Origin: Candidatus Aalborgicola bjergmarkensis
GTDB lineage: Bacteria > Pseudomonadota > Gammaproteobacteria > Burkholderiales > Burkholderiaceae_C
Assembly (NCBI GenBank): GCA_016708725.1
Contig: JADJFE010000002.1
Location: forward strand, 150,505 to 214,504
DNA: 64,000 bases
Direction: 5' to 3'
A model generated the notes under the pieces. The model searched no databases, was not told the DNA's origin, and worked only from the letters and a program-made list of their open reading frames with translations. Numbering within the stretch: position 1 is the stretch's first letter; every line of letters begins with the position of its first letter. Below are positions 14,395 to 64,000 of this stretch, in pieces. The position numbers and the translations under genes are program-made.

Positions 14395-14592
14395 CGCTCC
14401 TGATACAATAGCTGCTCCCGCTTGTCCCATAAGGATTTCAGCCCGATTTGCCATGCAAAAACACCCGACAACGGCCCGTTTTGATGCCTCATGGCGGCAT
14501 CAGCATCGCCTTGACCCGTCTTGAAGGGCAAAATTCAAGGCAAATCTGGCTGTACGCCTTATGGGACAAGCGGTAGCAGCTATGTTTTTTGC
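14395..14592. repeat. 198-bp dispersed palindromic repeat, copy 2
   Basis: Arms AGCTGCTCCCGCTTGTCCCATAAGG...GCCCGATTTGCC and GGCAAATCTGGC...CCTTATGGGACAAGCGGTAGCAGCT; colinear with 3065-3262. Confidence 0.85.
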
Positions 14593-44905: not shown

Positions 44906-45041
44906 GCCGATGCCTCGCAATTTACTATTAAATAAGTAGCTGTTCTCGCACATTCCATGCGGGTTTCAGCCAATTTTACCCTGAGTTTATAGGGTCACCA
45001 TGTCCCCGATAGAATCCGGTAGCTGTCAAAAGGAAAAAACC

Positions 45042-49853: not shown

Positions 49854-51986
<2,133 letters not shown>

Positions 51987-51998
51987 GAAGACCAGCCC

Positions 51999-53819
51999 AT
52001 GTCCGACGCCATCATCAACCGCCGCGACCTCGACTTCCAGCTTTTTGAGGTACTGGACACCGAAGCACTCACGGCCCACCCGCGCTTTGCCGAGCACAGC
52101 CGCGAGACTTTTACGGCGGTACTCGACACGGCACAAGCCATCGCCAGCGAAAAGTTTGCCCCGCACAACCGCAACGCCGATGAAAACGAGCCACACCTGG
52201 TAGATGGAAAAGTGCGCCTGACCCCCGAGGTTGCCGTAGCGCTGGAAGCCTTTGTGCAAGCGGGTTTCCTGGCGGCCAGCTATGACTTTGCGGAAGGTGG
52301 CATGCAGCTGCCTGCTGTGGTGTCGCAGGCGGCGATGTCGATCTTCGCCAGCGCCAACATGTCCACCACGGTCTACCCCCTGCTCAGCATGGGCAACGCC
52401 AGCGTGATCCACCGCTACGGTAGCGCGGAACAAAAAAAGACATACTGGGAGCCGCTGATGGCGGGGCGCTTCTTTGGCACCATGGCGCTGACCGAACCGC
52501 AGGCAGGCTCCGGCCTAGCCGACCTCAAAACCAGCGCCACACCCAACCCGGATGGCAGCTACGCCATACGAGGCAACAAAATCTTCATCTCCGCTGGCGA
52601 CCATGCCTTGAGCGACAACATCGTCCACCTGGTACTGGCGCGCATTGAAGGCGCACCGCCCGGCGTCAAGGGCATCTCGCTCTTCATCGTGCCCAAATTC
52701 CGCGTGCAAGCCGATGGCAGCCTGGGCGCACGCAACGATGTCGCGCTGACCGGACTCATCCACAAAATGGGCTGCCGGGGTGCGACTTCCACCATGCTGG
52801 CCTTCGGGGAAAACGGCGCGTGCCGGGGCGAGTTGGTGGGCGAGCCGCACAAGGGCCTGCGCTACATGTTCCACATGATGAACCAGATTCGCATCGGCAC
52901 GGGCATTGGCGCCGTCATGCTGGGGTATAGGGGCTACCAGGCATCGCTGGCCTACGCCAAAGAGCGCCTGCAAGGCCGCGCGCCCACCAGCAAGAATCCC
53001 GCCGAGCCACCGTTGCCCATCATCGAACACGGCGACGTGCGGCGCATGTTGCTGGCGCAAAAAGCTTATGTGGAAGGCGGCTACGCGCTGTGCCTGTACT
53101 GCGCCCAGCTGGTGGACACCCAGACCACCGGCGCAGACGAAACCGCCCGGCGCGAGGCTGGCATGCTGCTGGAACTGCTCACCCCCATCACCAAGTCCTG
53201 GCCCTCGCAATGGTGCCTGGAAGGCAACAGCCTGGCGATCCAGGTGCATGGCGGCTACGGCTACACCCGCGACTATCCCGTCGAGCAGTATTACCGCGAC
53301 AACCGGCTCAACGCCATCCACGAAGGCACCCACGGCATCCAGGCACTCGACCTGCTGGGCCGCAAGGCCTTCATGCACAACGGCGCTGCCAGCCAGCTGC
53401 TGGCGCGTGCCATCCAGCACACACTGGAACAGGCCGACGAAGCCGACAATGCGGCGGAGTTGCAGGAATTCACCACCGCTCTGGGGGCCGCACTCATGGA
53501 CATGGCCAGCACCTTGCAAACCTTGGGCGCCGCCCTGGCAAAGGAGCCCGAGCGGACCCTGGCCAACGCCAGCGTATTCCTCGAAGTCTGCGGCCATACC
53601 GTCATTGCCTGGATGTGGCTACGCCAAGCACTCGCCGCCCGCCGTGGCCTGGCGACGCATACCTCGACCGACAACGCCGCCGAGCAGGCCTTCTACCAGG
53701 GCAAACTCAGCACCTGCCGCTGGTTCTACCGCTGGGAATTACCCAAAACCCGCGCCTGGCACGCACTGCTGCGCAGCCTGGACGACACCGCACTGGCGAT
53801 GCCGGATGGTGGGTTTTGA
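51999..53819 (+). CDS. Acyl-CoA dehydrogenase (copy 1)
   Basis: TMALTEPQAGS, G.KIFIS.G, HKMG.RG, QVHGGYGY, IHEGTHGIQALDL. Confidence 0.95.
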   Translation: MSDAIINRRDLDFQLFEVLDTEALTAHPRFAEHSRETFTAVLDTAQAIASEKFAPHNRNADENEPHLVDGKVRLTPEVAVALEAFVQAGFLAASYDFAEGGMQLPAVVSQAAMSIFASANMSTTVYPLLSMGNASVIHRYGSAEQKKTYWEPLMAGRFFGTMALTEPQAGSGLADLKTSATPNPDGSYAIRGNKIFISAGDHALSDNIVHLVLARIEGAPPGVKGISLFIVPKFRVQADGSLGARNDVALTGLIHKMGCRGATSTMLAFGENGACRGELVGEPHKGLRYMFHMMNQIRIGTGIGAVMLGYRGYQASLAYAKERLQGRAPTSKNPAEPPLPIIEHGDVRRMLLAQKAYVEGGYALCLYCAQLVDTQTTGADETARREAGMLLELLTPITKSWPSQWCLEGNSLAIQVHGGYGYTRDYPVEQYYRDNRLNAIHEGTHGIQALDLLGRKAFMHNGAASQLLARAIQHTLEQADEADNAAELQEFTTALGAALMDMASTLQTLGAALAKEPERTLANASVFLEVCGHTVIAWMWLRQALAARRGLATHTSTDNAAEQAFYQGKLSTCRWFYRWELPKTRAWHALLRSLDDTALAMPDGGF

Positions 53820-53922: not shown

Positions 53923-54019
53923 GTACAACGTGGAGCTAAGCCGACCGGTGCCGCCACTTACCTCAAACAAAAACCATAAAAACGACGGCACCAAGTCGGC
54001 CTTGAGTGACCAGTTAGCA
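53923..54019 (-). other. attC site (terminal), array 1
   Basis: Minus strand TGCTAAC...GCCGACTTGGTGCCG / CGGCACCGGTCGGC...CAC-GTTGTAC; palindromic; follows the ORF stop by about 26 bp. Confidence 0.8.
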
Positions 54020-54045
54020 CCTACTATTGGCTATAAGTATCATAC

Positions 54046-54780
54046 TTAAACAAGAAAATTATCAATTTTACAAATCAACTCATCTAACTCATTTATTTTT
54101 CTGCCGAGTGTTAAATAAATGTCCGAGTAATCCAAGCATTCAACTGTGCGCTCTATTTTATTTTTTCTCTTTCTATTTTTACCGTCTAAATATGATTTTC
54201 CTGCGAGTTGATAAATTGCATGTAGGTCTTCCGCTGGGTGATCTCGAGTTGTCATATCATCATTACAAGGATCAAATCCAACTCTTGACACTATAAAAGA
54301 ATTGGTAAGTATTGTATCAACAAACTGGAAATGCTTGCATTCCGCCAAAAACCAAGATTCCACTTCTCTTACAGCAATAATGATTGAGGTATTGATAGGT
54401 AATGGTAGTGCTATTTTAACACCATTTCTTACGACTCCATTTCTTAAGTTAGATTGAAACAGTTGTAAATCTGTCCTAGGATACAAGTCTAGCAGACCTA
54501 CAATTTCCGTGTATCCTTGTAAAAACAGGCGCTGATAGTCTTCTAGCATCCTAGATTTAACGCCACCATCTCCTGCACAATCAAAAATAAGAGCATGATG
54601 TCTTGGGTTACTTGGTTGAGAGGTTGTTTTTGGATATATTTCTGTACAACAGTTCTTTCCCGCTCCTTGGAAACGTTCTAGCTTAATCTCTATGTTCTTT
54701 TGACCTGCAATTTCTATTAAAAGTTTATTTATAAATAACTGCTCTGTCAGCCCTTCAACATAAAATGCAATCTTTTTCAT
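54046..54780 (-). CDS. Cassette gene: DUF4276/TOPRIM-like protein
   Basis: IAFYVEGLTEQ (TOPRIM-type Glu), GLLDLY, IIIAVREVESWFLA; AT-rich. Confidence 0.7.
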   Translation of the reverse strand: MKKIAFYVEGLTEQLFINKLLIEIAGQKNIEIKLERFQGAGKNCCTEIYPKTTSQPSNPRHHALIFDCAGDGGVKSRMLEDYQRLFLQGYTEIVGLLDLYPRTDLQLFQSNLRNGVVRNGVKIALPLPINTSIIIAVREVESWFLAECKHFQFVDTILTNSFIVSRVGFDPCNDDMTTRDHPAEDLHAIYQLAGKSYLDGKNRKRKNKIERTVECLDYSDIYLTLGRKINELDELICKIDNFLV

Positions 54781-54786
54781 AAGAGA

Positions 54787-55950
54787 CTAATCCTCTGCAT
54801 TATCAATATAAAATTCAGAGGACAAGAAATCAAAATTACTCAACCCTGTATACTTGAAATCTTCAAATGTTGCTTTTGAATTTCTATGATTGTAAAACAA
54901 AGATTTTTTAGAAACCCTCTGAATAACAGACCAATACTCTAGAGGAACCTCATTCATTACAAATCTATCATTAGTTGTCATGATAACCTGAACAGATGAG
55001 CCAGAAACTTTTTGAATAATTAAATTAATAAGAGTTTTCGATCTGTCAAAATCAAGACCTTCTCCAATATCATCAATTAAAATACAACTTGGCGCCACAC
55101 TCAAAAGAGAGTAATTTAATTGTATTAGCAAAGACAAAACCCTAAACATACCCTGCGACATTTCTCTTTGATCGGTAATATCATCCAGTTCATTTTCTTT
55201 AACTGTTAAACCATATCCTGTAATAGGGAAATTTTTCAAAGGTTTAGCATCTATATCCTTTATGTCATAAGATATAGCTTTCATATCAGCTATAATTCCA
55301 TTACTAAATGAATCTGGAAATAAGCGCTTACCTCGAATAAAAGCTTCGGTAACTTCGTGACCATCTTTTAAATCCACTTCATCATCATCTTTGATCGCAT
55401 CCAAATCTCTTAGGTATGCATTTTTGCCTAATTGATCTCCGAATCTGTAGTGGCTTAAATTCTTACCCCAAAAATATAGCTTTTCAAAAAAAGAATGTTG
55501 TTTTTTATCTCTCTTTGAGACAGCCAAGACACCATCATCAGTCTGAAAATCCAGAAAATCGTTGGCCCCTTCATACCACAACTTTCCTAATGATCTATTG
55601 AGTTTCTCTACACCGTTAACAGTAAGAGTTTCATCGGTAATTTTTCCTTCTGCAAAATTTATATAATAATCAATTGATTCATTTTCATCAGTAAATTTTA
55701 GTGAATACTCTGCTGTTCCATAACCTAGCGTGTTAAGTACGGACAGCTTTACATCGCTTGATAACAAATCCGCAATATGTCTTATTGCATTAATAGTTCT
55801 GCTTTTTCCAGATGCATTTTTTCCAACAATAAGGTTCACATTATCTAATGTTAACCATTGTTCGAAATTCCCTTCTTTAGGTCTTCCTTCAACGGCCCAT
55901 TCATTAGGTTGACCTTTAAATCGGCAAAATTTCAATGCCTTTAAGTTCAT
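54787..55950 (-). CDS. Cassette gene: AAA_21/AAA_15 ABC-type ATPase
   Basis: IVGKNASGKS, EMSQGMFR signature, LIDDIGEGLD, IMTTND; AT-rich. Confidence 0.88.
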   Translation of the reverse strand: MNLKALKFCRFKGQPNEWAVEGRPKEGNFEQWLTLDNVNLIVGKNASGKSRTINAIRHIADLLSSDVKLSVLNTLGYGTAEYSLKFTDENESIDYYINFAEGKITDETLTVNGVEKLNRSLGKLWYEGANDFLDFQTDDGVLAVSKRDKKQHSFFEKLYFWGKNLSHYRFGDQLGKNAYLRDLDAIKDDDEVDLKDGHEVTEAFIRGKRLFPDSFSNGIIADMKAISYDIKDIDAKPLKNFPITGYGLTVKENELDDITDQREMSQGMFRVLSLLIQLNYSLLSVAPSCILIDDIGEGLDFDRSKTLINLIIQKVSGSSVQVIMTTNDRFVMNEVPLEYWSVIQRVSKKSLFYNHRNSKATFEDFKYTGLSNFDFLSSEFYIDNAED

Positions 55951-55995
55951 TTCCGCAACTCCAAAGTTAAAAATAATGGTAGCTTAAAATGAATT

Positions 55996-56060
55996 CGCTA
56001 ACCTAATGTCTGGAGACACACCCGTGTCTCCCTAACATGGCGGTTGCTCCATAACATGGC
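55996..56060 (-). other. attI-like site, platform 1
   Basis: Minus strand ATGTTA-TGGAGCAACCGCC-ATGTTA (direct repeats 19 bp apart), then GGAGACAC/GTGTCTCC, then G-TTAGCG at the first cassette. Confidence 0.75.
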
Positions 56061-56110
56061 TGGACGAAACCCCTGCAACCCCGCATGAAATAAGACTTTC
56101 ATCCAATATT

Positions 56111-56126
56111 CTGTATGCATCAGCAG
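56111..56126 (+). promoter_or_regulatory. LexA box-like site (one mismatch) upstream of intI remnant 1
   Basis: CTGTATGCATCAGCAG versus CTGT-N8-ACAG. Confidence 0.6.
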
Positions 56127-56141
56127 TCATAATATCCCAGA

Positions 56142-56300
56142 AAAACCAGCACGCCGGTTTTCGCGCCAACCCGGCTGCTGGATCAAGTACGTGCACAGAT
56201 GCGCCACCGGCACTATAGCCTCAGCGCCAAAGAGATATACCTGTACGGGGCGATTTTTTTGTTCGCTGACGTGGGAGCAACGCAATATGTCCGTTCCCAC
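56142..56300 (+). pseudogene. intI: Integron integrase 5' remnant 1
   Basis: RLLDQVRAQMRHRHYSLSAKEIYLY matches the IntI N-terminal SAM-like domain; no catalytic domain follows. Confidence 0.85.
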
Positions 56301-56427
56301 CCGAACCCCAAACCAGTGCCTGAGAAAACCCGAAAAACTCCCATTTCAATAGCTGTTCCCGCACGTTTCATGGGGCTTTCAAGCCGATTAGCTCAAAATT
56401 TAACCCAAAAACCACCCCATCACACAC

Positions 56428-56471
56428 CAGCCGCCCGGCAAGGCGGGGAGAACCTGGAAGTCTTGTTAGGC
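56428..56471 (-). other. Truncated attC (R'' half only)
   Basis: Minus strand GCCTAAC-AAGACTTCCAGG...CCCCGCCTTGCCGGGCGGCTG just after the ORF stop; no R' GTT arm. Confidence 0.6.
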
Positions 56472-56478
56472 TAGATGT

Positions 56479-57891
56479 TTACCAATGAATAACTTGAATG
56501 TCTAAGTCCTGCGCTGTCATGGCAACTTCTATACCTTCTTCGTTTGCACGAAATGCTGGGGCCTCATAACGCTGCATATACGAAACATAAGTATCCGCCT
56601 TCAATAATCCATCTGATGGATCTAAGTAGGACACCCAATAATTATTCGACTTGCGATCTAGAAAAACACCTGTCAGCACGGTCGCATGCCTTCCGAACTG
56701 ATTATCAATGGTAAACCATACTGGTCCAAAATCTTTTAAAAGTGAAACCAGGCCATTTTCAGAATAACTTTGTGGTGCAGCGTATTTCAGATTGGCCGAC
56801 AATAATAATGTCAACTTGTAGCTATTAGGTAAAGGCGCATCGCGCTCATATAAAGATAGAAACTGAAGTCCCAAACTTTTAACAGCCTCATTTTCATCAA
56901 TTTCTTGACTCAACCTCCAAGAAGTCATCATTGCTATAGCTGCAACCCAGCAACGGTTAGAAGAGGATTGCTTTACAGGATAAATATCTTCCAACCAAAC
57001 TAATTTTTCGAACTTATATAAAGTTTGCGGCAAGCTGGATTGAAGTTTTGTCAACGGCACCGATGTGGGAGCGGTAGTTTTAGCTTTTTCATGCAAAATA
57101 TTAGTAAGAGTGGATGCTTCTTCATTGGTAAGCTGTTCTCGACGAGATTTCATGATGAGCCGAGCAAGATCATCCCCACTACCTGATTCTCCCGGTTGCA
57201 AGTCCAAGACATTGATGGGTCTGAACGAAACAACTTTTTGTGTTTTAACAGCATCTTGCTCGGTGTAGATGCTTCCATTTGCACCAAAAGCCATGCCTTT
57301 TATTTTTCCATCACCAGTTTGCTTTCGGAATCGTCTAACTGTTATATCAGTGACAATTACATTGTCTATAAAAAAGTAATCCTTGTTTGGTATGGGGTGA
57401 ACCTTTCCTAGAGACTGAAATGGAATATCAGTTTGATTTTTATAGCCAAGCACTAGCTGATTTCTTATTGTTACTTCGGCAAGCTCATCACCAGTGGCGT
57501 CACCAGAAGTAAGTTGAAAACGACCGCCAAAATTTGCTTTTGCAGAAACTATCCCATGATATAATTTTTCTTCGATAATTTTCGTCTTAATCAAGTCACG
57601 CGATGGTCGATTCCTAGGGTCAAACGACCAAGTGACTTTTCCATCTTCAGATTGTGTGCGAATGGCTATAGCCCCTATCAAGTCCATTATCGAATCTTCA
57701 TCAGCAGAAAGCGCTGGCATACTAACATAGCCACTTGCTATCTGATCAAGTACATTTTCATTGATTTCAACTTGAACATCACTAAATGACACAGTATCGT
57801 TGACCATCTTAGATTTAAGAATAAATGCACCAACAGCTGATCCAATAAGCACTACTGCTAAAAGAATAGATATTTTTATATTCATCTTCAC
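56479..57891 (-). CDS. Cassette gene: N-terminally anchored protein with beta-rich domain and C-terminal papain-like (C39/C70-like) cysteine protease
   Basis: Hydrophobic N-terminus; VKQSSSNRCWVAAIAM (Cys), GPVW, RHATVLTGV (His), YLDP (Asp). Confidence 0.75.
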   Translation of the reverse strand: MKMNIKISILLAVVLIGSAVGAFILKSKMVNDTVSFSDVQVEINENVLDQIASGYVSMPALSADEDSIMDLIGAIAIRTQSEDGKVTWSFDPRNRPSRDLIKTKIIEEKLYHGIVSAKANFGGRFQLTSGDATGDELAEVTIRNQLVLGYKNQTDIPFQSLGKVHPIPNKDYFFIDNVIVTDITVRRFRKQTGDGKIKGMAFGANGSIYTEQDAVKTQKVVSFRPINVLDLQPGESGSGDDLARLIMKSRREQLTNEEASTLTNILHEKAKTTAPTSVPLTKLQSSLPQTLYKFEKLVWLEDIYPVKQSSSNRCWVAAIAMMTSWRLSQEIDENEAVKSLGLQFLSLYERDAPLPNSYKLTLLLSANLKYAAPQSYSENGLVSLLKDFGPVWFTIDNQFGRHATVLTGVFLDRKSNNYWVSYLDPSDGLLKADTYVSYMQRYEAPAFRANEEGIEVAMTAQDLDIQVIHW

Positions 57892-58012
57892 ACATCTTGA
57901 AAAATTTTATATGCAAACAGTTCGTGATGATCGGACAAAGCCATTTAAACGCTCTATCCGGTATTCCGAACCCGACTTTTCTCATAGGGTGACGTACCCT
58001 AAAAAATAACCT

Positions 58013-58082
58013 GCCTAACGTCCAAGTTTAGGGACAGGCAAAAGCGAAGCTTTTGGCTGTCCGCTGGAACGAACTGTTAGAG
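58013..58082 (-). other. attC site, array 2
   Basis: Minus strand CTCTAAC (overlapping the ORF's TAA stop)...GGACAGCCAAAAGC-TTC-GCTTTTGCCTGTCC...GTTAGGC. Confidence 0.9.
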
Positions 58083-58715
58083 GTTTTGTCTGGAAGAGAG
58101 TTGCCATATGTGTTCTCTATCCAAAATACACACGAGCTCAAATTGATCGAGTGCCGTACACATTGTTGTACCAACTAGCTTAATGCAACTATCCCATTCA
58201 GTTGGGTGTGATTCGTCCTTACAATAAATTATAAGAGCGGTGCCTTTTGGGTATTCCTTTCCGAGTTTCTTTGCTAGAACTCTCGCCAGAATTCTTCCCC
58301 GCTCAGCTACCCATTCTGAGTCGCGCTTTATCGCTGTTACAACCCCATTCCTATGGAGTTCAGTACGTGTCTTGTGCTCGGTTTGATCCTCGAGGGATGT
58401 AACCTCAATGAAGTTAATTTTAGAACCACTATCGTGCTCATGTTCAACGGTTGCATCGTATGTCTGATTCCCTAACTTCAGGGAAACTTTGGCTTGTGGC
58501 GCCTCAAGCTTTAGAAATAGTTCACAGAAATATCCAATTGGTACCATTTCATCACATAGTTCTTTCGCTAGGCCGATGCGCTTGAGAAATTGTTCCTCAC
58601 CAAATGGCGTACTTCTAACAAGTGCGCATAAATTCCAAGATTTCTGAAGATATTCAGCAACTGAATATTTACGCTGCATTTTTTCTTGAAGCCATTCGTT
58701 CGTAATTTGAATCAT
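58077..58715 (-). CDS. Cassette gene: hypothetical, possible PD-(D/E)xK-like nuclease
   Basis: EMVPIGYF...GNQTYDATV...FIEVT pattern; bounded by GTTAGGC upstream and attC downstream. Confidence 0.6.
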   Translation of the reverse strand: MIQITNEWLQEKMQRKYSVAEYLQKSWNLCALVRSTPFGEEQFLKRIGLAKELCDEMVPIGYFCELFLKLEAPQAKVSLKLGNQTYDATVEHEHDSGSKINFIEVTSLEDQTEHKTRTELHRNGVVTAIKRDSEWVAERGRILARVLAKKLGKEYPKGTALIIYCKDESHPTEWDSCIKLVGTTMCTALDQFELVCILDREHIWQLSSRQNL

Positions 58716-58752
58716 ATTGATCGCTTCGAAGCCAAAAACCAGGGGAAAGGAT

Positions 58753-58810
58753 GCCTAACTCAATATGAAGAGACACTCTCGCGTCTCCGTAACATGGCCG
58801 GGCAACATCC
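58753..58810 (-). other. attI-like site, platform 2
   Basis: Homologous to 55996-56060; G-TTAGGC at the first cassette; ATGTTA motif retained. Confidence 0.7.
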
Positions 58811-58848
58811 GCGCAAACCCGCATGAAATAAGGCTTGTAGCCGACATT

Positions 58849-58864
58849 CTGTATGCATAAACAG
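58849..58864 (+). promoter_or_regulatory. LexA (SOS) box upstream of intI remnant 2
   Basis: CTGTATGCATAAACAG is an exact CTGT-N8-ACAG match. Confidence 0.8.
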
Positions 58865-58880
58865 TCATAACATCCCCAGA

Positions 58881-59025
58881 AAAACCAGCACGCCGGTTTT
58901 TGCGCCAACCCGGTTGCTGGATCAAGTACGTGCGCAGATGCGCCACCGGCACTATAGCCCAAGAGTTGAAGTGGCCTATTTGTATTGAGCGAATTTTTTT
59001 GTTCGCCGACATGGGCACAATGCAA
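58881..59025 (+). pseudogene. intI: Integron integrase 5' remnant 2
   Basis: TRLLDQVRAQMRHRHYSPRVEVAYLY-stop-ANFFVRRHG; TGA at 58986-58988 where IntI has Trp. Confidence 0.88.
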
Positions 59026-59370
59026 TATACCTAGCCCACCAGTAACCAAAGCTCTCCGCACCGAATTCTGCGTGTGCAGTCATCCAGCCAGGAGAAATCC
59101 GACAAACTCCCATTTCAATAGCTGTCTCCGCAGGCTCCATGAGGCCTTCAAGCCGATCAGCTCAAAATTCAACCCAAAAACCACCCCGCCACACACCACC
59201 AGCAGCCCGGCTAGGTGGGATGGTTTTGGGTTGGTAGCCCCGGAATAAAGAGAAAATATGGCTGTACCCCTCATGGAATAAGCGACAACAGCTACAAATG
59301 TAGAAGCACTCTACAGCAGGGAGCAGGCCATAAACTCTACTGCGACACGGAAACAAAGTAGCATCAATAC

Positions 59371-60293
59371 CCGCCACCACCCCCAAACGCATCGCAGTAG
59401 TCGGCGCCGGCCCGGCGGGCATGGCCGCAGCCACTTTGCTGGCCGAGCGCGGGCATCAGGTCACGCTGTTTGACGCTGCGGCGGATGTGGGCGGCCAGTT
59501 CAACCTGGCGCGCAAGATTCCGGGCAAGGAGGAGTTTGCGGAAACGCTGCGCTACTTCCGCAACCGCCTGAACGAACTCAAAGTGGACTTGCAATTCAAG
59601 CGCCATGTCAGCGCAGATGACCTCAAAGGCTATGCCCATGTGGTGCTTGCCACCGGCATTGTGCCGCGCACGCCCGCGATTGACGGCATCCACCACCCCA
59701 AGGTCACCAGCTACATCGACCTGATCGAAGGCCGCAAACAGGCCGGTAAACGGGTGGCCATCATCGGCGCCGGTGGCATTGGTTTTGACGTGGCCGAATT
59801 GCTCAGCCACGCCAACCCACACAGCGATGACCCCGCCAGCCCCGTCAACCTGGAAGCCTACCAGAAGGAATGGGGCATTGACGTTCAGTATGGCGATGTG
59901 CGTGGCGGCCTGACCGCACCACAAATGCCAGCCGCTGTACGCGAAATCTGGCTGCTGCAACGCAAGACCGGCAAGCTCGGCGAAGGCCTGGCACGCACCA
60001 CCGGCTGGGCGCGGCGCCTGCTGCTGCAAAAGCGCGACGTACACATGCTGGGCGGCGTGGAGTACCGCAAAATCGACGATGCCGGTCTGCACATTGCCAT
60101 CGACGGCAAGGATCAACTGCTCGACGTGGACACCGTGGTCATCTGCGCCGGGCAGGACCCGCGCCGCGAACTGGTACAAGGTCTGGCTGCGCTGGGCATC
60201 GCCTACACCCTGGTGGGCGGTGCCGATGTGGCCGCTGAACTCGATGCCAAGCGCGCCATTGCACAAGCAACCGAAGTGGCACTGGAACTCTGA
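59371..60293 (+). pseudogene. fadH: Duplicated 3' half of fadH (FAD/NADPH domains only)
   Basis: Near-identical to about 51065-51986 with scattered substitutions; TIM-barrel half absent. Confidence 0.92.
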
Positions 60294-60314
60294 CCCACCA
60301 CAGCAAGCCTAGCC

Positions 60315-62141
60315 ATGTCCGACAGCATCATCAACCGCCGTGACCTCGACTTCCAGCTGTTCGAGGTGCTGGACACCGAAGCACTCACGGCCCACCCGCG
60401 CTTTGCCGAGCACAGCCGCGAGACTTTTACGGCAGTGCTGGACACGGCACAAGCTGTCGCCCGCGAAAAGTTTGCCCCGCACAACCGCAACGCCGATGAA
60501 AACGAGCCACACCTGGACCCGGTGGATGGGCAGGTGCACTTGATTCCCGACGTTGCCGTGGCGCTAGAAGCCTTTGTGCAAGCCGGTTTTCTGGCGGCCA
60601 GCTATGACTTTGATGAAGGCGGCATGCAGCTGCCTGCTGTGGTGTCGCAAGCAGCGATGTCGATTTTCGCCAGCGCCAACATGTCCACCACGGTCTACCC
60701 CCTGCTCAGCATGGGCAACGCCAGCGTGATCCACCGCTACGGTAGCGCGGAACAAAAAAAGACATACTGGGAGCCGCTGATGGCGGGGCGCTTCTTTGGT
60801 ACCATGGCGCTGACCGAACCGCAGGCAGGCTCTGGACTGGCCGACCTCAAAACCAGCGCCACACCCAACCCCGATGGCAGCTACGCCATCCGGGGCAACA
60901 AAATCTTCATCTCTGCGGGCGACCATCCCTTGAGTGAAAACATCGTCCACTTGGTACTGGCACGCATCGAAGGCGCTCCGCCCGGCGTCAAAGGCATCTC
61001 GCTCTTCATCGTGCCCAAATTCCATGTGCAAGCCGATGGCAGCCTGGGCGCGCGCAACGATGTCGCACTGACCGGACTCATCCACAAAATGGGCTGCCGG
61101 GGTGCGACTTCCACCATGCTGGCTTTCGGGGAAAAAGGCGCGTGCCGGGGCGAGCTGGTGGACGAGCCGCACAAGGGCCTGCGCTACATGTTCCACATGA
61201 TGAACCAGATTCGCATTGGCACGGGTATTGGCGCCGTCATGCTGGGCTATCGGGGTTACCAGGCATCGCTGGCCTACGCCAGGCAGCGCCTGCAGGGCCG
61301 CGCACCCACCAGCAAAAATCCCTCCGACCCCCCGTTGCCCATCATCGAACACGGCGACGTGCGGCGCATGTTGCTGGCACAAAAAGCCTATGTGGAAGGC
61401 GGCTACGCACTGTGCCTGTACTGCGCCCAGCTGGTGGACACCCAGACCACTGGCGCGGATGAAACCGCCCGGCGCGAGGCCGGTATGCTGCTGGAGCTGC
61501 TCACCCCCATCACCAAATCCTGGCCCTCGCAATGGTGCCTGGAAGGCAACAGCCTGGCGATCCAGGTGCATGGCGGCTACGGCTACACCCGCGACTATCC
61601 CGTCGAGCAGTTTTACCGCGACAACCGGCTCAACGCCATCCACGAAGGCACCCACGGCATCCAGGCGCTCGACCTGCTGGGCCGCAAGGCCTTCATGCAC
61701 AACGGCGCTGCCAGCCAGTTGCTGGCGCGCGCCATCCAGCAAACGCTGGAACAGGCCGACGAAGCCGACAATGCGGCGGAGTTGCAGGAGTTCACCACCG
61801 CCTTGGGCGCAGCACTCATGGACATGACCAGCACCCTGCAAACCCTGGGCGCCGCCCTGGCAAAGGAACCCGAGCGGACCCTGGCCAATGCCAGCGTATT
61901 CCTCGAAGTCTGCGGCCACACCGTGATCGCCTGGATGTGGCTACGCCAGGCACTCGCCGCCTGCCGTGGCCTGGCGACGCACACCGCAACCGACAACGCT
62001 ACAGAGCGCGCCTTCTACCAAGGCAAACTCAGCACCTGCCGCTGGTTCTACCGCTGGGAATTACCCAAAACCCGCACCTGGCACGCACTGCTGCGCAGCC
62101 TGGACGACACCGCACTGGCGATGCCGGATGGGGGGTTTTGA
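60315..62141 (+). CDS. Acyl-CoA dehydrogenase (copy 2, diverged)
   Basis: Full-length paralog of 51999-53819 with a 2-aa insertion (PHLDPVDG) and many synonymous changes. Confidence 0.95.
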   Translation: MSDSIINRRDLDFQLFEVLDTEALTAHPRFAEHSRETFTAVLDTAQAVAREKFAPHNRNADENEPHLDPVDGQVHLIPDVAVALEAFVQAGFLAASYDFDEGGMQLPAVVSQAAMSIFASANMSTTVYPLLSMGNASVIHRYGSAEQKKTYWEPLMAGRFFGTMALTEPQAGSGLADLKTSATPNPDGSYAIRGNKIFISAGDHPLSENIVHLVLARIEGAPPGVKGISLFIVPKFHVQADGSLGARNDVALTGLIHKMGCRGATSTMLAFGEKGACRGELVDEPHKGLRYMFHMMNQIRIGTGIGAVMLGYRGYQASLAYARQRLQGRAPTSKNPSDPPLPIIEHGDVRRMLLAQKAYVEGGYALCLYCAQLVDTQTTGADETARREAGMLLELLTPITKSWPSQWCLEGNSLAIQVHGGYGYTRDYPVEQFYRDNRLNAIHEGTHGIQALDLLGRKAFMHNGAASQLLARAIQQTLEQADEADNAAELQEFTTALGAALMDMTSTLQTLGAALAKEPERTLANASVFLEVCGHTVIAWMWLRQALAACRGLATHTATDNATERAFYQGKLSTCRWFYRWELPKTRTWHALLRSLDDTALAMPDGGF

Positions 62142-62245
62142 AGACGTGGGGGTGATCTGGGTCGCAGGCGCTGTCAGTGCTGTCACTGCACCTTGGGCAG
62201 CACGGTAGCACGGCATTGGTTGGCTTGCGCGCGTGCAGCTGACGT

Positions 62246-62314
62246 GCACAACGTTTGAATTAACCGGCTGGCGCGGCTTTATCGCGCCAGTCCGTGTTGA
62301 ATGATGGGTTAGCG
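62246..62314 (-). other. attC site (terminal), array 3
   Basis: Minus strand CGCTAAC-CCATCATTCAACACGGACTGGCGCG-ATAAAGC-CGCGCCAGCCGGTTAATTCAAAC-GTTGTGC; R'' overlaps the TAA stop. Confidence 0.9.
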
Positions 62315-62815
62315 GCCGTGTGAAGTTCGACCATGAAGAACATAGAGATTTTCTGTTTCGGCAAATTTGAGTACCGCAAGATGCGCTTTTAATATCCTTA
62401 TCATATAAGGCAAGTCATCGCCATCCCATTGGCTGTCCGGGTTCTGTTCTGTAGGAAGGCTTAACCCTTCAAGGATTTCACTTTCTGTCCAAGAATCTTG
62501 CTCAACGCAGATGGCAACTGCACGGGGATCTTTTTCGAAAGACACCAATAACGATTCGATATCTTTAATGGCTTGGTATACCTTTTCTGGATTGAGGGTT
62601 GCGGCGCTTTCTGAAAGATATGCGAGATATTTTTTATCGTATGCCCGAACCACTTTCTCCAGCATATTTGATAGTGCAGGTTTTCTGTTTGAGTATCCGA
62701 AACAAAACGGACCGCCATTGCTGATTAGGTGTGAAATGTCATCCAGCGACCCGAATTGAGGGGGAATTTCATCCGCTCGTGCTGAAACAGAAAGTAAGGC
62801 ATGGTCATTCGCCAT
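62309..62815 (-). CDS. Cassette gene: hypothetical protein
   Basis: 168-aa AT-rich ORF whose ATG is 4 bp after GTTAGCC and whose stop lies within the attC. Confidence 0.75.
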   Translation of the reverse strand: MANDHALLSVSARADEIPPQFGSLDDISHLISNGGPFCFGYSNRKPALSNMLEKVVRAYDKKYLAYLSESAATLNPEKVYQAIKDIESLLVSFEKDPRAVAICVEQDSWTESEILEGLSLPTEQNPDSQWDGDDLPYMIRILKAHLAVLKFAETENLYVLHGRTSHGR

Positions 62816-62819
62816 AGAC

Positions 62820-62885
62820 GGCTAACCTAATGTGTGGAGACATTCTCGTGTCTCCCTACCATGGCGATTATCTCCATGACATGGC
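62820..62885 (-). other. attI-like site, platform 3
   Basis: Homologous to 55996-56060 (CTAACCTAATGT.TGGAGACA...GTGTCTCCCTA.CATGGC). Confidence 0.7.
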
Positions 62886-62965
62886 TGGGCGAAACCCCTG
62901 CAACCCCGCATGAAATAAGATTTTCATCCAATATTCTGTATGCATCAACGGTCATAACACCCCAG

Positions 62966-63115
62966 AAAACCCAGCACGCCGGTTTCTGCGCCAACCTGGC
63001 TGCTGGATCAATTACGTGCGCAGGCGCGCCACCGGCACTATAGCCTCAGAGCCGAAGGAGCTTGCCTGTATGGAGTGATTTTTTGGTTCGCTGGCATGGG
63101 CACAGTGCAATGTGC
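62966..63115 (+). pseudogene. intI: Integron integrase 5' remnant 3
   Basis: LLDQLRAQARHRHYSLRAEGACLY, then VRWHG after a frameshift; degenerate LexA box at 62936-62951. Confidence 0.85.
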
Positions 63116-63259
63116 CCGGCCCCTCCCGCAACCAAAGCCAGCGCCTGAGAAAACCAACAAAACTCCCATTTCAATAGCTGTTACCGCACGTTCCATGAGG
63201 CTTTCAAGCCGATTTGCTAAAAATTTAACCACAAAACGACATGACGCAGGGGAGCGCCG

Positions 63260-63517
63260 TCAGGCGTGAGCTTGTGCTTCAAATGCAGCCACCGATACCG
63301 GGCGGCTCACTGCCACGGACCTGCGCAAAGTCTTGATGCGTTCAACTTCATGCATGGTTGCGGCGGTGAAATACGACTCGCCACAGTTTGAGCATGACCA
63401 TAGGGGGATGCCCTCAATAACAAGCAAGTTCGCACCTTTTCCAAAACTACGGGTGACGTGCTTGAGTTGTACCGACGGGCTACCGCAGTGCTCACAGATA
63501 TGTTGATTAGCAGACAT
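63260..63517 (-). CDS. YgiT-type zinc-finger (MqsA N-terminal-like) antitoxin
   Basis: CEHCG...LLVIEGIPLWSCSNCGESYF. Confidence 0.85.
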   Translation of the reverse strand: MSANQHICEHCGSPSVQLKHVTRSFGKGANLLVIEGIPLWSCSNCGESYFTAATMHEVERIKTLRRSVAVSRPVSVAAFEAQAHA

Positions 63518-63788
63518 AGGCAGTAATGACAATGAGTTTTCCGGTAAAACCGACTTTGACGACAACCTCTGCGGCGGTGCCATTGAGCGTAGTGCCCGCA
63601 ATTACAAACTTTGTTTCGTTTGTTCTGGTGTCGCGTTGCCGCTCAACGACATCCCCGGAAAGAACGATGCTCTCAAGGTCGAGGACTGAAAGGCCGTCAT
63701 CTTCAAGCTCTTCCGCAGCGTGTGACGAGACAAAGTAATCGAGGTTACGAACCAGCCGTCGGAAATGGTTGATCGTGTAACGTGCCAT
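63507..63788 (-). CDS. DUF4258 family putative toxin
   Basis: YFVSSHAAEELEDDGL...LSGDVVE...LIVITAY; overlaps the partner gene. Confidence 0.82.
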   Translation of the reverse strand: MARYTINHFRRLVRNLDYFVSSHAAEELEDDGLSVLDLESIVLSGDVVERQRDTRTNETKFVIAGTTLNGTAAEVVVKVGFTGKLIVITAYVC

Positions 63789-63831
63789 GCGTTCCAGTTT
63801 AGCAGGCTGCGGCGATGAATGCGCCGCTAAC

Positions 63832-63900
63832 GAAGGTACCCACGGCATCCAGGCACTGAACCTGCTGGGCCGCAAGACGTTCCGATGCACAACGGCGCTG
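63832..63900 (+). pseudogene. Third, short acyl-CoA dehydrogenase remnant
   Basis: GAAGGTACCCACGGCATCCAGGCACTGAACCTGCTGGGCCGCAAG...ATGCACAACGGCGCTG matches about 53322-53389 (EGTHGIQALDLLGRK..MHNGA). Confidence 0.85.
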
Positions 63901-63904
63901 GCAA

Positions 63905-64000
63905 CCCAAACCAGCGCCTGAGAAAACCAACAAAACTCCCATTTCAATAGCTGTTCCCGCACGTTCCATAAGGCTTTCAAACCGATTTGCCAATAATTTA
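63905..64000 (+). repeat. 3' part of the repeated platform unit (ATAGCTG REP-like element)
   Basis: CCAGCGCCTGAGAAAACC...ACTCCCATTTCAATAGCTGTTCCCGCACG matches about 56310-56400 and 63135-63225. Confidence 0.85.

Follow-up and report, generated by a model that had tools for sequence, protein, structure and literature searches.

Integrons are usually understood as systems of one integrase, one attI site and one cassette array, in which loss of the integrase is the onset of erosion to a cluster of attC sites lacking an integrase (CALIN). Here we describe a stretch of 64,000 nucleotides from Candidatus Aalborgicola bjergmarkensis (C2:150505-214504, contig C2 being JADJFE010000002.1, within a 6.09-Mb assembly of 40 contigs; hereafter the window), in which attI sites with short dead stubs of the integrase gene intI recur in series. 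An earlier note, made from the letters alone, had described them as integron platforms without a live integrase, each loaded with different cassettes. Decayed chromosomal integrons, genomes with multiple intI genes and CALINs are already known (PMC2426708; 10.1101/2025.06.18.660453). The term pseudo-integron stands for an intI pseudogene with attI and cassettes (Nemergut 2008, PMC2426708), and the ilvD-linked Xanthomonas integron, with its decayed intI, is treated as one where 10.1101/2025.06.18.660453 cites Gillings 2005. Where the same paper cites Cury 2016, a CALIN is an attC cluster that lacks the integron integrase. Our literature searches turned up no account of attI sites and dead intI stubs arranged in tandem.

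We propose, with a probability of about 0.65, that the locus is a decayed sedentary chromosomal integron of a Rhodoferax lineage, and that its platform was copied into a series of modules along with its cassettes and parts of the adjacent beta-oxidation genes. By platform we mean attI, the SOS-box promoter region and 55-60 dead codons from the start of intI (intI'), fused to a genome-wide short repeat. It is flanked by fadH and an acyl-CoA dehydrogenase gene (ACAD) on the cassette side, and by fadA and fadB on the intI side. The locus is a pseudo-integron, and the earlier note was right to set it apart from both complete integrons and plain CALINs: no intact IntI gene (with the extra domain) lies next to an attI, a recognisable but inactivated intI lies beside cassettes, and attI sites with intI stubs go beyond the CALIN definition. 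Like other pseudo-integrons it is sedentary at a fixed chromosomal site, its intI was inactivated by deletion, stops and frameshifts with attI and cassettes kept, its cassettes vary between relatives and its decay predates species splits. The known cases, however, have one platform per locus, whereas here about 38 dead platforms per genome are arranged in serial modules, the modules contain flanking housekeeping pieces and no more than about 60 codons of intI remain.

The repeat search and alignment recovered all three units that had been noted, as well as the 3' part of a fourth (Table 1), although a complete unit measures about 590 bp and not the 430 bp first estimated. By BLAST, units 1 and 3 are 86% identical (421 bp, E 1e-135), and units 1 and 2 are 76% identical. 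A complete integron from another Rhodoferax genome can be aligned to the unit base for base through its attI, its SOS box and its 5' intI region. From this homology, attI would be adjacent to and divergent from intI, with a G↓TT crossover. On the minus strand, each unit begins with the GTTAGC crossover box (55997-56002, 58755-58760 and 62822-62827), followed by the GGAGACAC..GTGTCTCC palindrome and two ATGTTA direct repeats, only one of them in unit 2, where there is a 20-bp deletion. The predicted SOS box (CTGT-N8-ACAG) lies at the start of intI, in the same position as in the complete Rhodoferax integron; it is perfect in unit 2 and six other units and has one mismatch in units 1 and 3. Such a box would fit an SOS-controlled integron, which carries a LexA box at Pint (PMC3108266). 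The remnants proposed to be intI did align to IntI: blastx of the stubs against IntI proteins of the genus covered residues ~1-60 with E values of 1e-8 to 1e-11. Each remnant has about 55-60 codons and is dead, the start codon having changed from ATG to ATA and stops and frameshifts being present, and all stubs in the window are cut at the same point.

An ATAGCTG element adjoins the intI cut point and had been counted among the unit's own parts. This element was ruled out as integron-specific by its ~950 genome-wide copies; we call it the B repeat. Its consensus is approximately ATAGCTGCTCCCGCACGTTCCATAAGGC.TACAGCCCGATTTGCC, the ~950 copies are spread over the 6-Mb genome and it has no Rfam match. 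Copies in the window lie at 56336-56392, 59105-59161, 63161-63217 and 63934-63990, and also at 14406-14451 and 44937-44976. A search of the whole region against Rfam gave no matches.

Comparison of the copies located the point where they part. Identity between copies is 68-77% in attI, 74-84% in the dead intI stub and 88% in the B repeat, the best-conserved part of the unit. On the cassette side of the AAC/GTT crossover it drops from about 70-77% to a random 26%, exactly at that base. Therefore, the DNA joined to attI changes from copy to copy at the very position where integron integrases cut (G↓TT), and the claim that the stubs share one cut point while the first cassettes differ is borne out.

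Next, we looked at the attC sites. Finders using AAC...GTT and constrained folding were too unspecific and missed known sites, so a local scan, nhmmer and a covariance model were used instead. The local nhmmer search gathered a lineage-specific attC family of ~19 members, and the model, R1, was then built in this analysis on a seed alignment of 14 sites. In its fold 81% of cells are paired, against ~33% in slid-partner controls, and 11 pairs show compensatory change; the observed value was reached by 0 of 500 shuffles. R1 found the three proposed attC sites of the window where they had been placed, and in a scan of all 64 kb nothing else scored. Support for attC1, the terminal site of array 1, is moderate: its constrained fold is one long imperfect hairpin, but it is not listed when the R1 filters are off, where its length probably exceeds the model window. 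The R' box of attC1 abuts the flank downstream of ACAD. attC3 is of the terminal attC type of the closest record at this locus, the metagenome-assembled genome (MAG) Rhodoferax sp. XM1_ASGE3bin.20 (the sister species; ~91% nucleotide identity). The ACAD protein puts the present genome, too, in Rhodoferax. The attC3-type site of the sister species (L009 11949-12015) scores 81 bits, and the two stems differ by compensatory changes. It was also correct that the two terminal attC sites run into homologous DNA downstream of the two ACAD copies, since the homology of these flanks reaches the R' box. The half site proposed at 56428-56471 has no R1 match even at E 10; by its sequence it is what remains, the R''-L'' half, of an attC that belonged to the C70-peptidase cassette, and a deletion has joined it to the shortened right end of unit 1. 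R1 likewise gave no match, even at E 10, to the hairpin at 59165-59235 or to its copies, most of which are without AAC/GTT boxes.

Over 470 kb of unit-bearing loci R1 reported 33 attC sites, all pointing away from the nearest attI, that is, the cassettes end in attC sites oriented away from attI. At least one attC lies within ~2 kb at 11 of 18 attI-bearing units, and none was detectable beside the other seven. The attC sites of the window are 4.0 and 4.2 kb apart with non-cassette DNA between them, and whether they would cluster as a CALIN depends on the distance threshold. The locus resembles a CALIN in having attC cassettes with no functional integrase nearby. Unlike a CALIN, which is defined without attI, each of its short arrays (1-2 attC) has its own attI and intI stub, with DNA other than cassettes between one array and the next. 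Elsewhere in the genome two CALIN-like groups of R1 matches have no unit nearby, one of five attC sites (C37:75.5-81.2 kb) and one of two (C32:73-74.5 kb).

The modules also include pieces of the chromosomal flanks, which the earlier note had not described. A second, 92% identical copy of the segment 51064-53920 (ACAD with the 3' half of fadH before it and the flank as far as the R' box) lies at 59371-62245. The fadH 3' fragment (fadH') begins abruptly behind unit 2 after a 52-bp filler (59319-59370), which makes this an illegitimate junction. Seven further partial units beyond the window share one right-hand end at about unit position 587, and in five of them this end is joined to the last 110 nt of ACAD at a CAGCA microhomology. 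Such a junction would be expected as the single novel junction of a tandem duplication that then expanded, where the duplicated segment is taken to run from the ACAD 3' end through cassettes, attI and intI' to the unit end. In cluster II, eight modules consist of a unit, a thiolase gene (fadA) and a fadB truncated at varying points (fadB'), followed by cassettes; cluster III has the same module design with other flanking genes. Flank fragments occur in only two clusters, both on one contig. Among the module junctions examined, including the fadB' ends, we saw no attC or G↓TT signature, with the toxin-antitoxin cassette as the sole exception. These joins show the module boundaries to be illegitimate junctions (microhomology or filler) and not attI or attC sites. 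One apparent fadB' end proved not to be a truncation but a miniature inverted-repeat transposable element (MITE) with an 8-bp target duplication; this MITE-like insertion (C2:353683-353825) has 143 bp, 23-bp terminal inverted repeats and the target duplication GCTCGATC.

Tandem gene amplification begins with an illegitimate duplication and continues by unequal crossing-over, and its copies are ordinarily identical and short-lived. The present array is like it in that a single derived junction, from unit end to ACAD 3' end across CAGCA, is repeated head to tail. It is unlike ordinary amplification in that the copies are 5-25% diverged, are stable across a species split and differ in their internal cargo.

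The earlier note had counted three units and suggested looking for others and for a full intI. The attI-intI' part has ~38 matches in the genome, ~18 of them near full-length with attI. They form three serial clusters on contig C2 (Table 1), single unit copies lie on six further contigs, and many units lack attI altogether. A TIGR02249 search of the whole assembly gave nothing above cut-off and no full-length IntI. The best match, on contig C32, covers model positions 1-94 only, and the longest intI remnant (C32:254944-256594) aligns over ~109 residues, keeps its start codon and has two attC sites alongside. Across the genus, full IntI is present in 32 of 121 Rhodoferax genomes (26%). Metagenome contigs carry related, longer intI genes: in one the frame stays open for 183 residues until the contig stops, and two others are close to full length but frameshifted.

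To date the array we turned to the sister species, between which and the present genome dS (synonymous divergence) is ~0.25. Its MAG contains 26 unit matches, and no full-length IntI was found in it. The sister contig has the same serial module order and the same junctions: the join of unit end to ACAD 3' end occurs five times here and four times there, and the toxin-antitoxin cassette is followed by an internal ACAD fragment and by unit position 351 (window 63799-63950) in both, with an identical junction. Two modules with their cassettes are collinear in the two species at 87-93% identity over 1.0-1.2 kb. Because junctions and cassettes are identical in the sister species, the array (at least some of its junctions and cassettes) is shown by this comparison to predate the species split and to have been inherited vertically, a depth in time that the earlier note had not recognised. 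At the locus the sister order is ACAD, an attC3-type attC, a cassette and attI, and the intI stub is cut still earlier, by a restriction-modification insertion. In sister L009 12019-17141 we also saw a ParA-like cassette split by an insertion sequence (577-aa transposase), and a methyltransferase and restriction-enzyme pair in place of most of intI. No unit copies were seen in 24 further Rhodoferax genomes, save one weak match to a live intI, and synteny with a more distant Rhodoferax (L010) revealed no empty site.

This comparison also bears on whether the assembler could have concatenated strain variants of one hypervariable locus. The copies do diverge by strain- or species-level amounts, and the CheckM-type contamination of the assembly is 4.2%. 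But the junctions join non-homologous sequence, unlike overlap or k-mer errors, and the same junctions and serial order recur in the sister MAG, an independent short-read assembly of a different species made with a different assembler. The shared junctions therefore argue that the array is no assembly artefact of this genome, and we consider such an artefact highly improbable. Exact-protein look-ups turned up no independent contigs. C2:331-378 kb holds six complete and two internally deleted thiolase genes in 47 kb, with 4-6% nucleotide divergence, and these copies may inflate the contamination estimate.

The flank copies suggest another origin, to which we give a little less than even odds: most modules would be alleles of the native locus, imported from related lineages and added beside the resident copy. 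The native forms would be cassettes-attI-intI'-fadA-fadB or fadH-ACAD-cassettes-attI, and a possible route is single-crossover insertion of a circularised fragment, with no replacement. The flank copies have dS of 0.2-0.3, dN/dS (nonsynonymous over synonymous divergence) of 0.05-0.15 and open frames. The low dN/dS holds in fragments lacking the N-terminal part, namely fadH' and most fadB' copies, and also in two thiolase copies with an in-frame 91-codon deletion. fadH' differs from the full fadH by a dS of 0.21 (dN/dS 0.10), and the eight fadA-fadB' copies, although truncated at different points, contain no stops and differ pairwise by dS of 0.2-0.3 with dN/dS of 0.05-0.1. ACAD1, ACAD2 and the sister orthologue are equidistant (dS 0.22-0.27). 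In a tree of units from both species the two are fully interleaved, with 8 label changes, the same as for shuffled labels. One sister fragment shares 97% identity with just one module here and 91-95% with the others, and a search of the sister genome for the fadH' and fadB' junctions recovered neither. All of this speaks for import. On the other hand, other junctions and cassettes occur in the sister species too, which makes part of the array old; one junction occurs five times, pointing to amplification within the genome; the additive-insertion mechanism could not be shown; and low dN/dS could reflect function of the complete thiolases and dehydrogenase-domain fragments.

To show such a low dN/dS, the fragments must have come recently from functional genes of other lineages, have been overwritten repeatedly by recombination, or have kept a function. 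The overall pattern favours continuing allele exchange among related lineages, whether modules are imported and added or existing ones are overwritten in homologous recombination, and alternatively the fragments may be under selection. The earlier note had offered two alternatives, that cassettes were exchanged after amplification by an integrase in trans or that the units were imported from different strains. Both find partial support, amplification in the recurrent derived junction of the two species, and exchange between lineages, which is suggested, in the interleaved units, the equidistant ACAD copies and the low dN/dS of fragments.

The attI stubs could instead be working satellite platforms, kept as landing pads or expression sites for an integrase acting in trans. 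The exact crossovers with different first cassettes, the predicted SOS boxes that are retained, the longer intI relatives in metagenomes and the IntI-bearing quarter of the genus would suit this. So would the cassettes, which differ at orthologous attI sites of the two species after the integrase had died. We nevertheless hold it to be distinctly unlikely. No IntI was found in either genome, attI is no more conserved than dead intI, and a consensus scan of unit 1 (55900-56500) revealed no sigma-70-like promoter. Many units have lost attI, and seven of the 18 that retain it have no detectable attC. The suggestion that several parallel first positions would let many cassettes be expressed at once is thus unsupported, with no promoter-like site in unit 1 and attI no better conserved than the dead gene. 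Since attI is not better conserved, a promoter was not seen, attI sites have been lost and no integrase was found, the stubs are most likely fossils; the modules of today would probably be static stores of cargo (a defence candidate, a C70 peptidase and a toxin-antitoxin pair) and not working capture sites.

Our preferred reading is the decayed and multiplied integron. The integrase would have died once, because the loss of the start codon and the cut point are common to every copy. The dead integron would then have been tandemly duplicated as a whole by illegitimate recombination, unequal crossing-over would have expanded the duplicated array, and the modules would later have diversified by deletions and cassette turnover. 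The agent of turnover may have been an integrase present transiently in trans, or homologous recombination with alleles of related lineages bearing other cassettes. Four observations sit badly with this course of events. The truncated flank fragments, with their dN/dS of 0.05-0.15 and open frames, do not look like old fossils. Cassettes differ at the orthologous attI of two integrase-less species that have the same dead start codon; therefore, some turnover continued after the death of the integrase. The units have kept SOS boxes, holding 7 of the 15 perfect CTGT-N8-ACAG boxes with AT-rich spacer in the genome. Finally, both assemblies are incomplete and an integrase could sit in a gap.

The cassette cargo of the window is varied (Table 1). 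In PADLOC the two-gene cassette of array 1 matched AbiLi (7.8e-20), AriA (1.3e-17), HEC-01A (3e-16) and HEC-01B (6e-6), so that its AAA_21 ATPase and DUF4276 protein form a candidate defence system resembling HEC-01, AbiLi and AriA. A low-G+C pair of genes encoding 387 and 210 aa lies behind another attI (C2:338877-340669) and may be a relative of it. The toxin-antitoxin cassette, for which no attC was detected, starts within the coding sequence of ACAD (window 63799-63906), reading G↓TTAGCG where the native gene has ...CTTCG↓TGGAT.... Judging by this join, it looks like an integrase insertion at a secondary (off-target) site. ACAD copy 1 has 95% protein identity to the sister-species orthologue.

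Table 1. Features of the window and unit clusters on contig C2 (positions refer to the window unless C2 is given; ORF, open reading frame)
Feature	Position	Strand	Evidence or remarks
fadH-like 2,4-dienoyl-CoA reductase, full copy	49866-51986	+	Pfam Oxidored_FMN and Pyr_redox_2; left chromosomal flank
ACAD copy 1	51999-53819	+	Pfam Acyl-CoA_dh N, M, 1, C domains
attC1, 97 nt	53923-54019	-	R1 21.1 bits, E 0.005; outside seed
Two-gene cassette, array 1	54046-55950	-	Pfam
DUF4276 protein of this cassette	54046-54780	-	Pfam
AAA_21 ATPase of this cassette	54787-55950	-	Pfam
Unit 1	55997-56440	+	right end removed by deletion
Unit 1, attI	55997-56063		
Unit 1, predicted SOS-like box	56111-56126		
Unit 1, intI remnant	56133-56324		
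Unit 1, B repeat	~56336-56392		
Truncated attC, R''-L'' half only	56445-56471	-	belonged to C70-peptidase cassette; sequence reading
470-aa cassette ORF, array 2, Peptidase_C70 (AvrRpt2-like) domain	56479-57891	-	Pfam 3.3e-19
attC2	58013-58082	-	R1 44.9 bits; seed member
212-aa ORF, first cassette of array 2	58077-58715	-	no family match
Unit 2, full-length form	58754-59318	+	single-ATGTTA attI; B repeats and hairpin; ends at common right end ~587
Unit 2, perfect predicted SOS box	58849-58864		CTGTATGCATAAACAG
Unit 2, intI remnant	58845-59015		
fadH 3' fragment, 307 open codons	59371-60293	+	alignment to full fadH copy
ACAD copy 2	60315-62141	+	dS 0.22 to copy 1, 0.23 to sister orthologue
attC3	62246-62314	-	R1 68 bits; seed member; terminal site of array 3
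168-aa cassette ORF, array 3	62309-62815	-	no family match
Unit 3	62821-63240	+	B repeat; truncated on right at ~unit position 456
Unit 3, attI	62821-62887		
Unit 3, predicted SOS-like box	62936-62951		
Unit 3, intI remnant	62967-63137		
Toxin-antitoxin cassette, DUF4258 toxin and MqsA-like antitoxin	63260-63829	-	Pfam
Internal ACAD fragment, 77 nt	63830-63906	+	joined to next partial unit
Fourth unit, 3' part	from 63908	+	unit positions 351-587; continues to window-equivalent 64145, then last 110 nt of ACAD
Cluster I	C2 204-223 kb	+ (all units)	includes window units
Cluster II	C2 331-378 kb		
Cluster III	C2 532-553 kb		

With large sedentary chromosomal integrons such as the superintegron of Vibrio cholerae (PMC8191803, PMC11551772) the locus shares a lineage-specific attC family with covarying stems, toxin-antitoxin and defence cargo and an SOS-box control region. 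Such integrons, however, have a single live integrase, a single attI and a long array without interruptions, whereas here there is no integrase, many attI and very short arrays.

New at this locus are the copy number, the flank DNA in the modules, the survival of the array through a species split and the fragments' selection-like signal. The attI with its dead intI stub was multiplied to dozens, kept through a species split and is still linked to different cargo; an old array without an integrase is an unusual end state for a gene-capture system. Software that relies on intI or on attC clusters alone would overlook such loci or break them up. The many diverged attI sites, together with the related intI of metagenomes, offer a natural system for studying attI recognition and trans-acting integrases, and the locus raises the question of what exchanges cassettes in a genome that encodes no integrase. 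The SOS boxes of these integrase-less units could bind an appreciable part of the LexA. The truncated flank fragments, which look purified by selection, are a population-genetic signal that deserves attention. It is possible, though we find it doubtful, that the dead integron locus is an additive sink, in which mini-integrons of relatives (cassettes, attI and housekeeping DNA) are added beside the resident copy and do not replace it, possibly by means of an integrase in trans or RecA-driven insertion of circularised fragments. If true, this would be an unrecognised route for collecting integron platforms themselves and not only cassettes, and it would give the organism a heritable library of alleles and cargo without a resident integrase.

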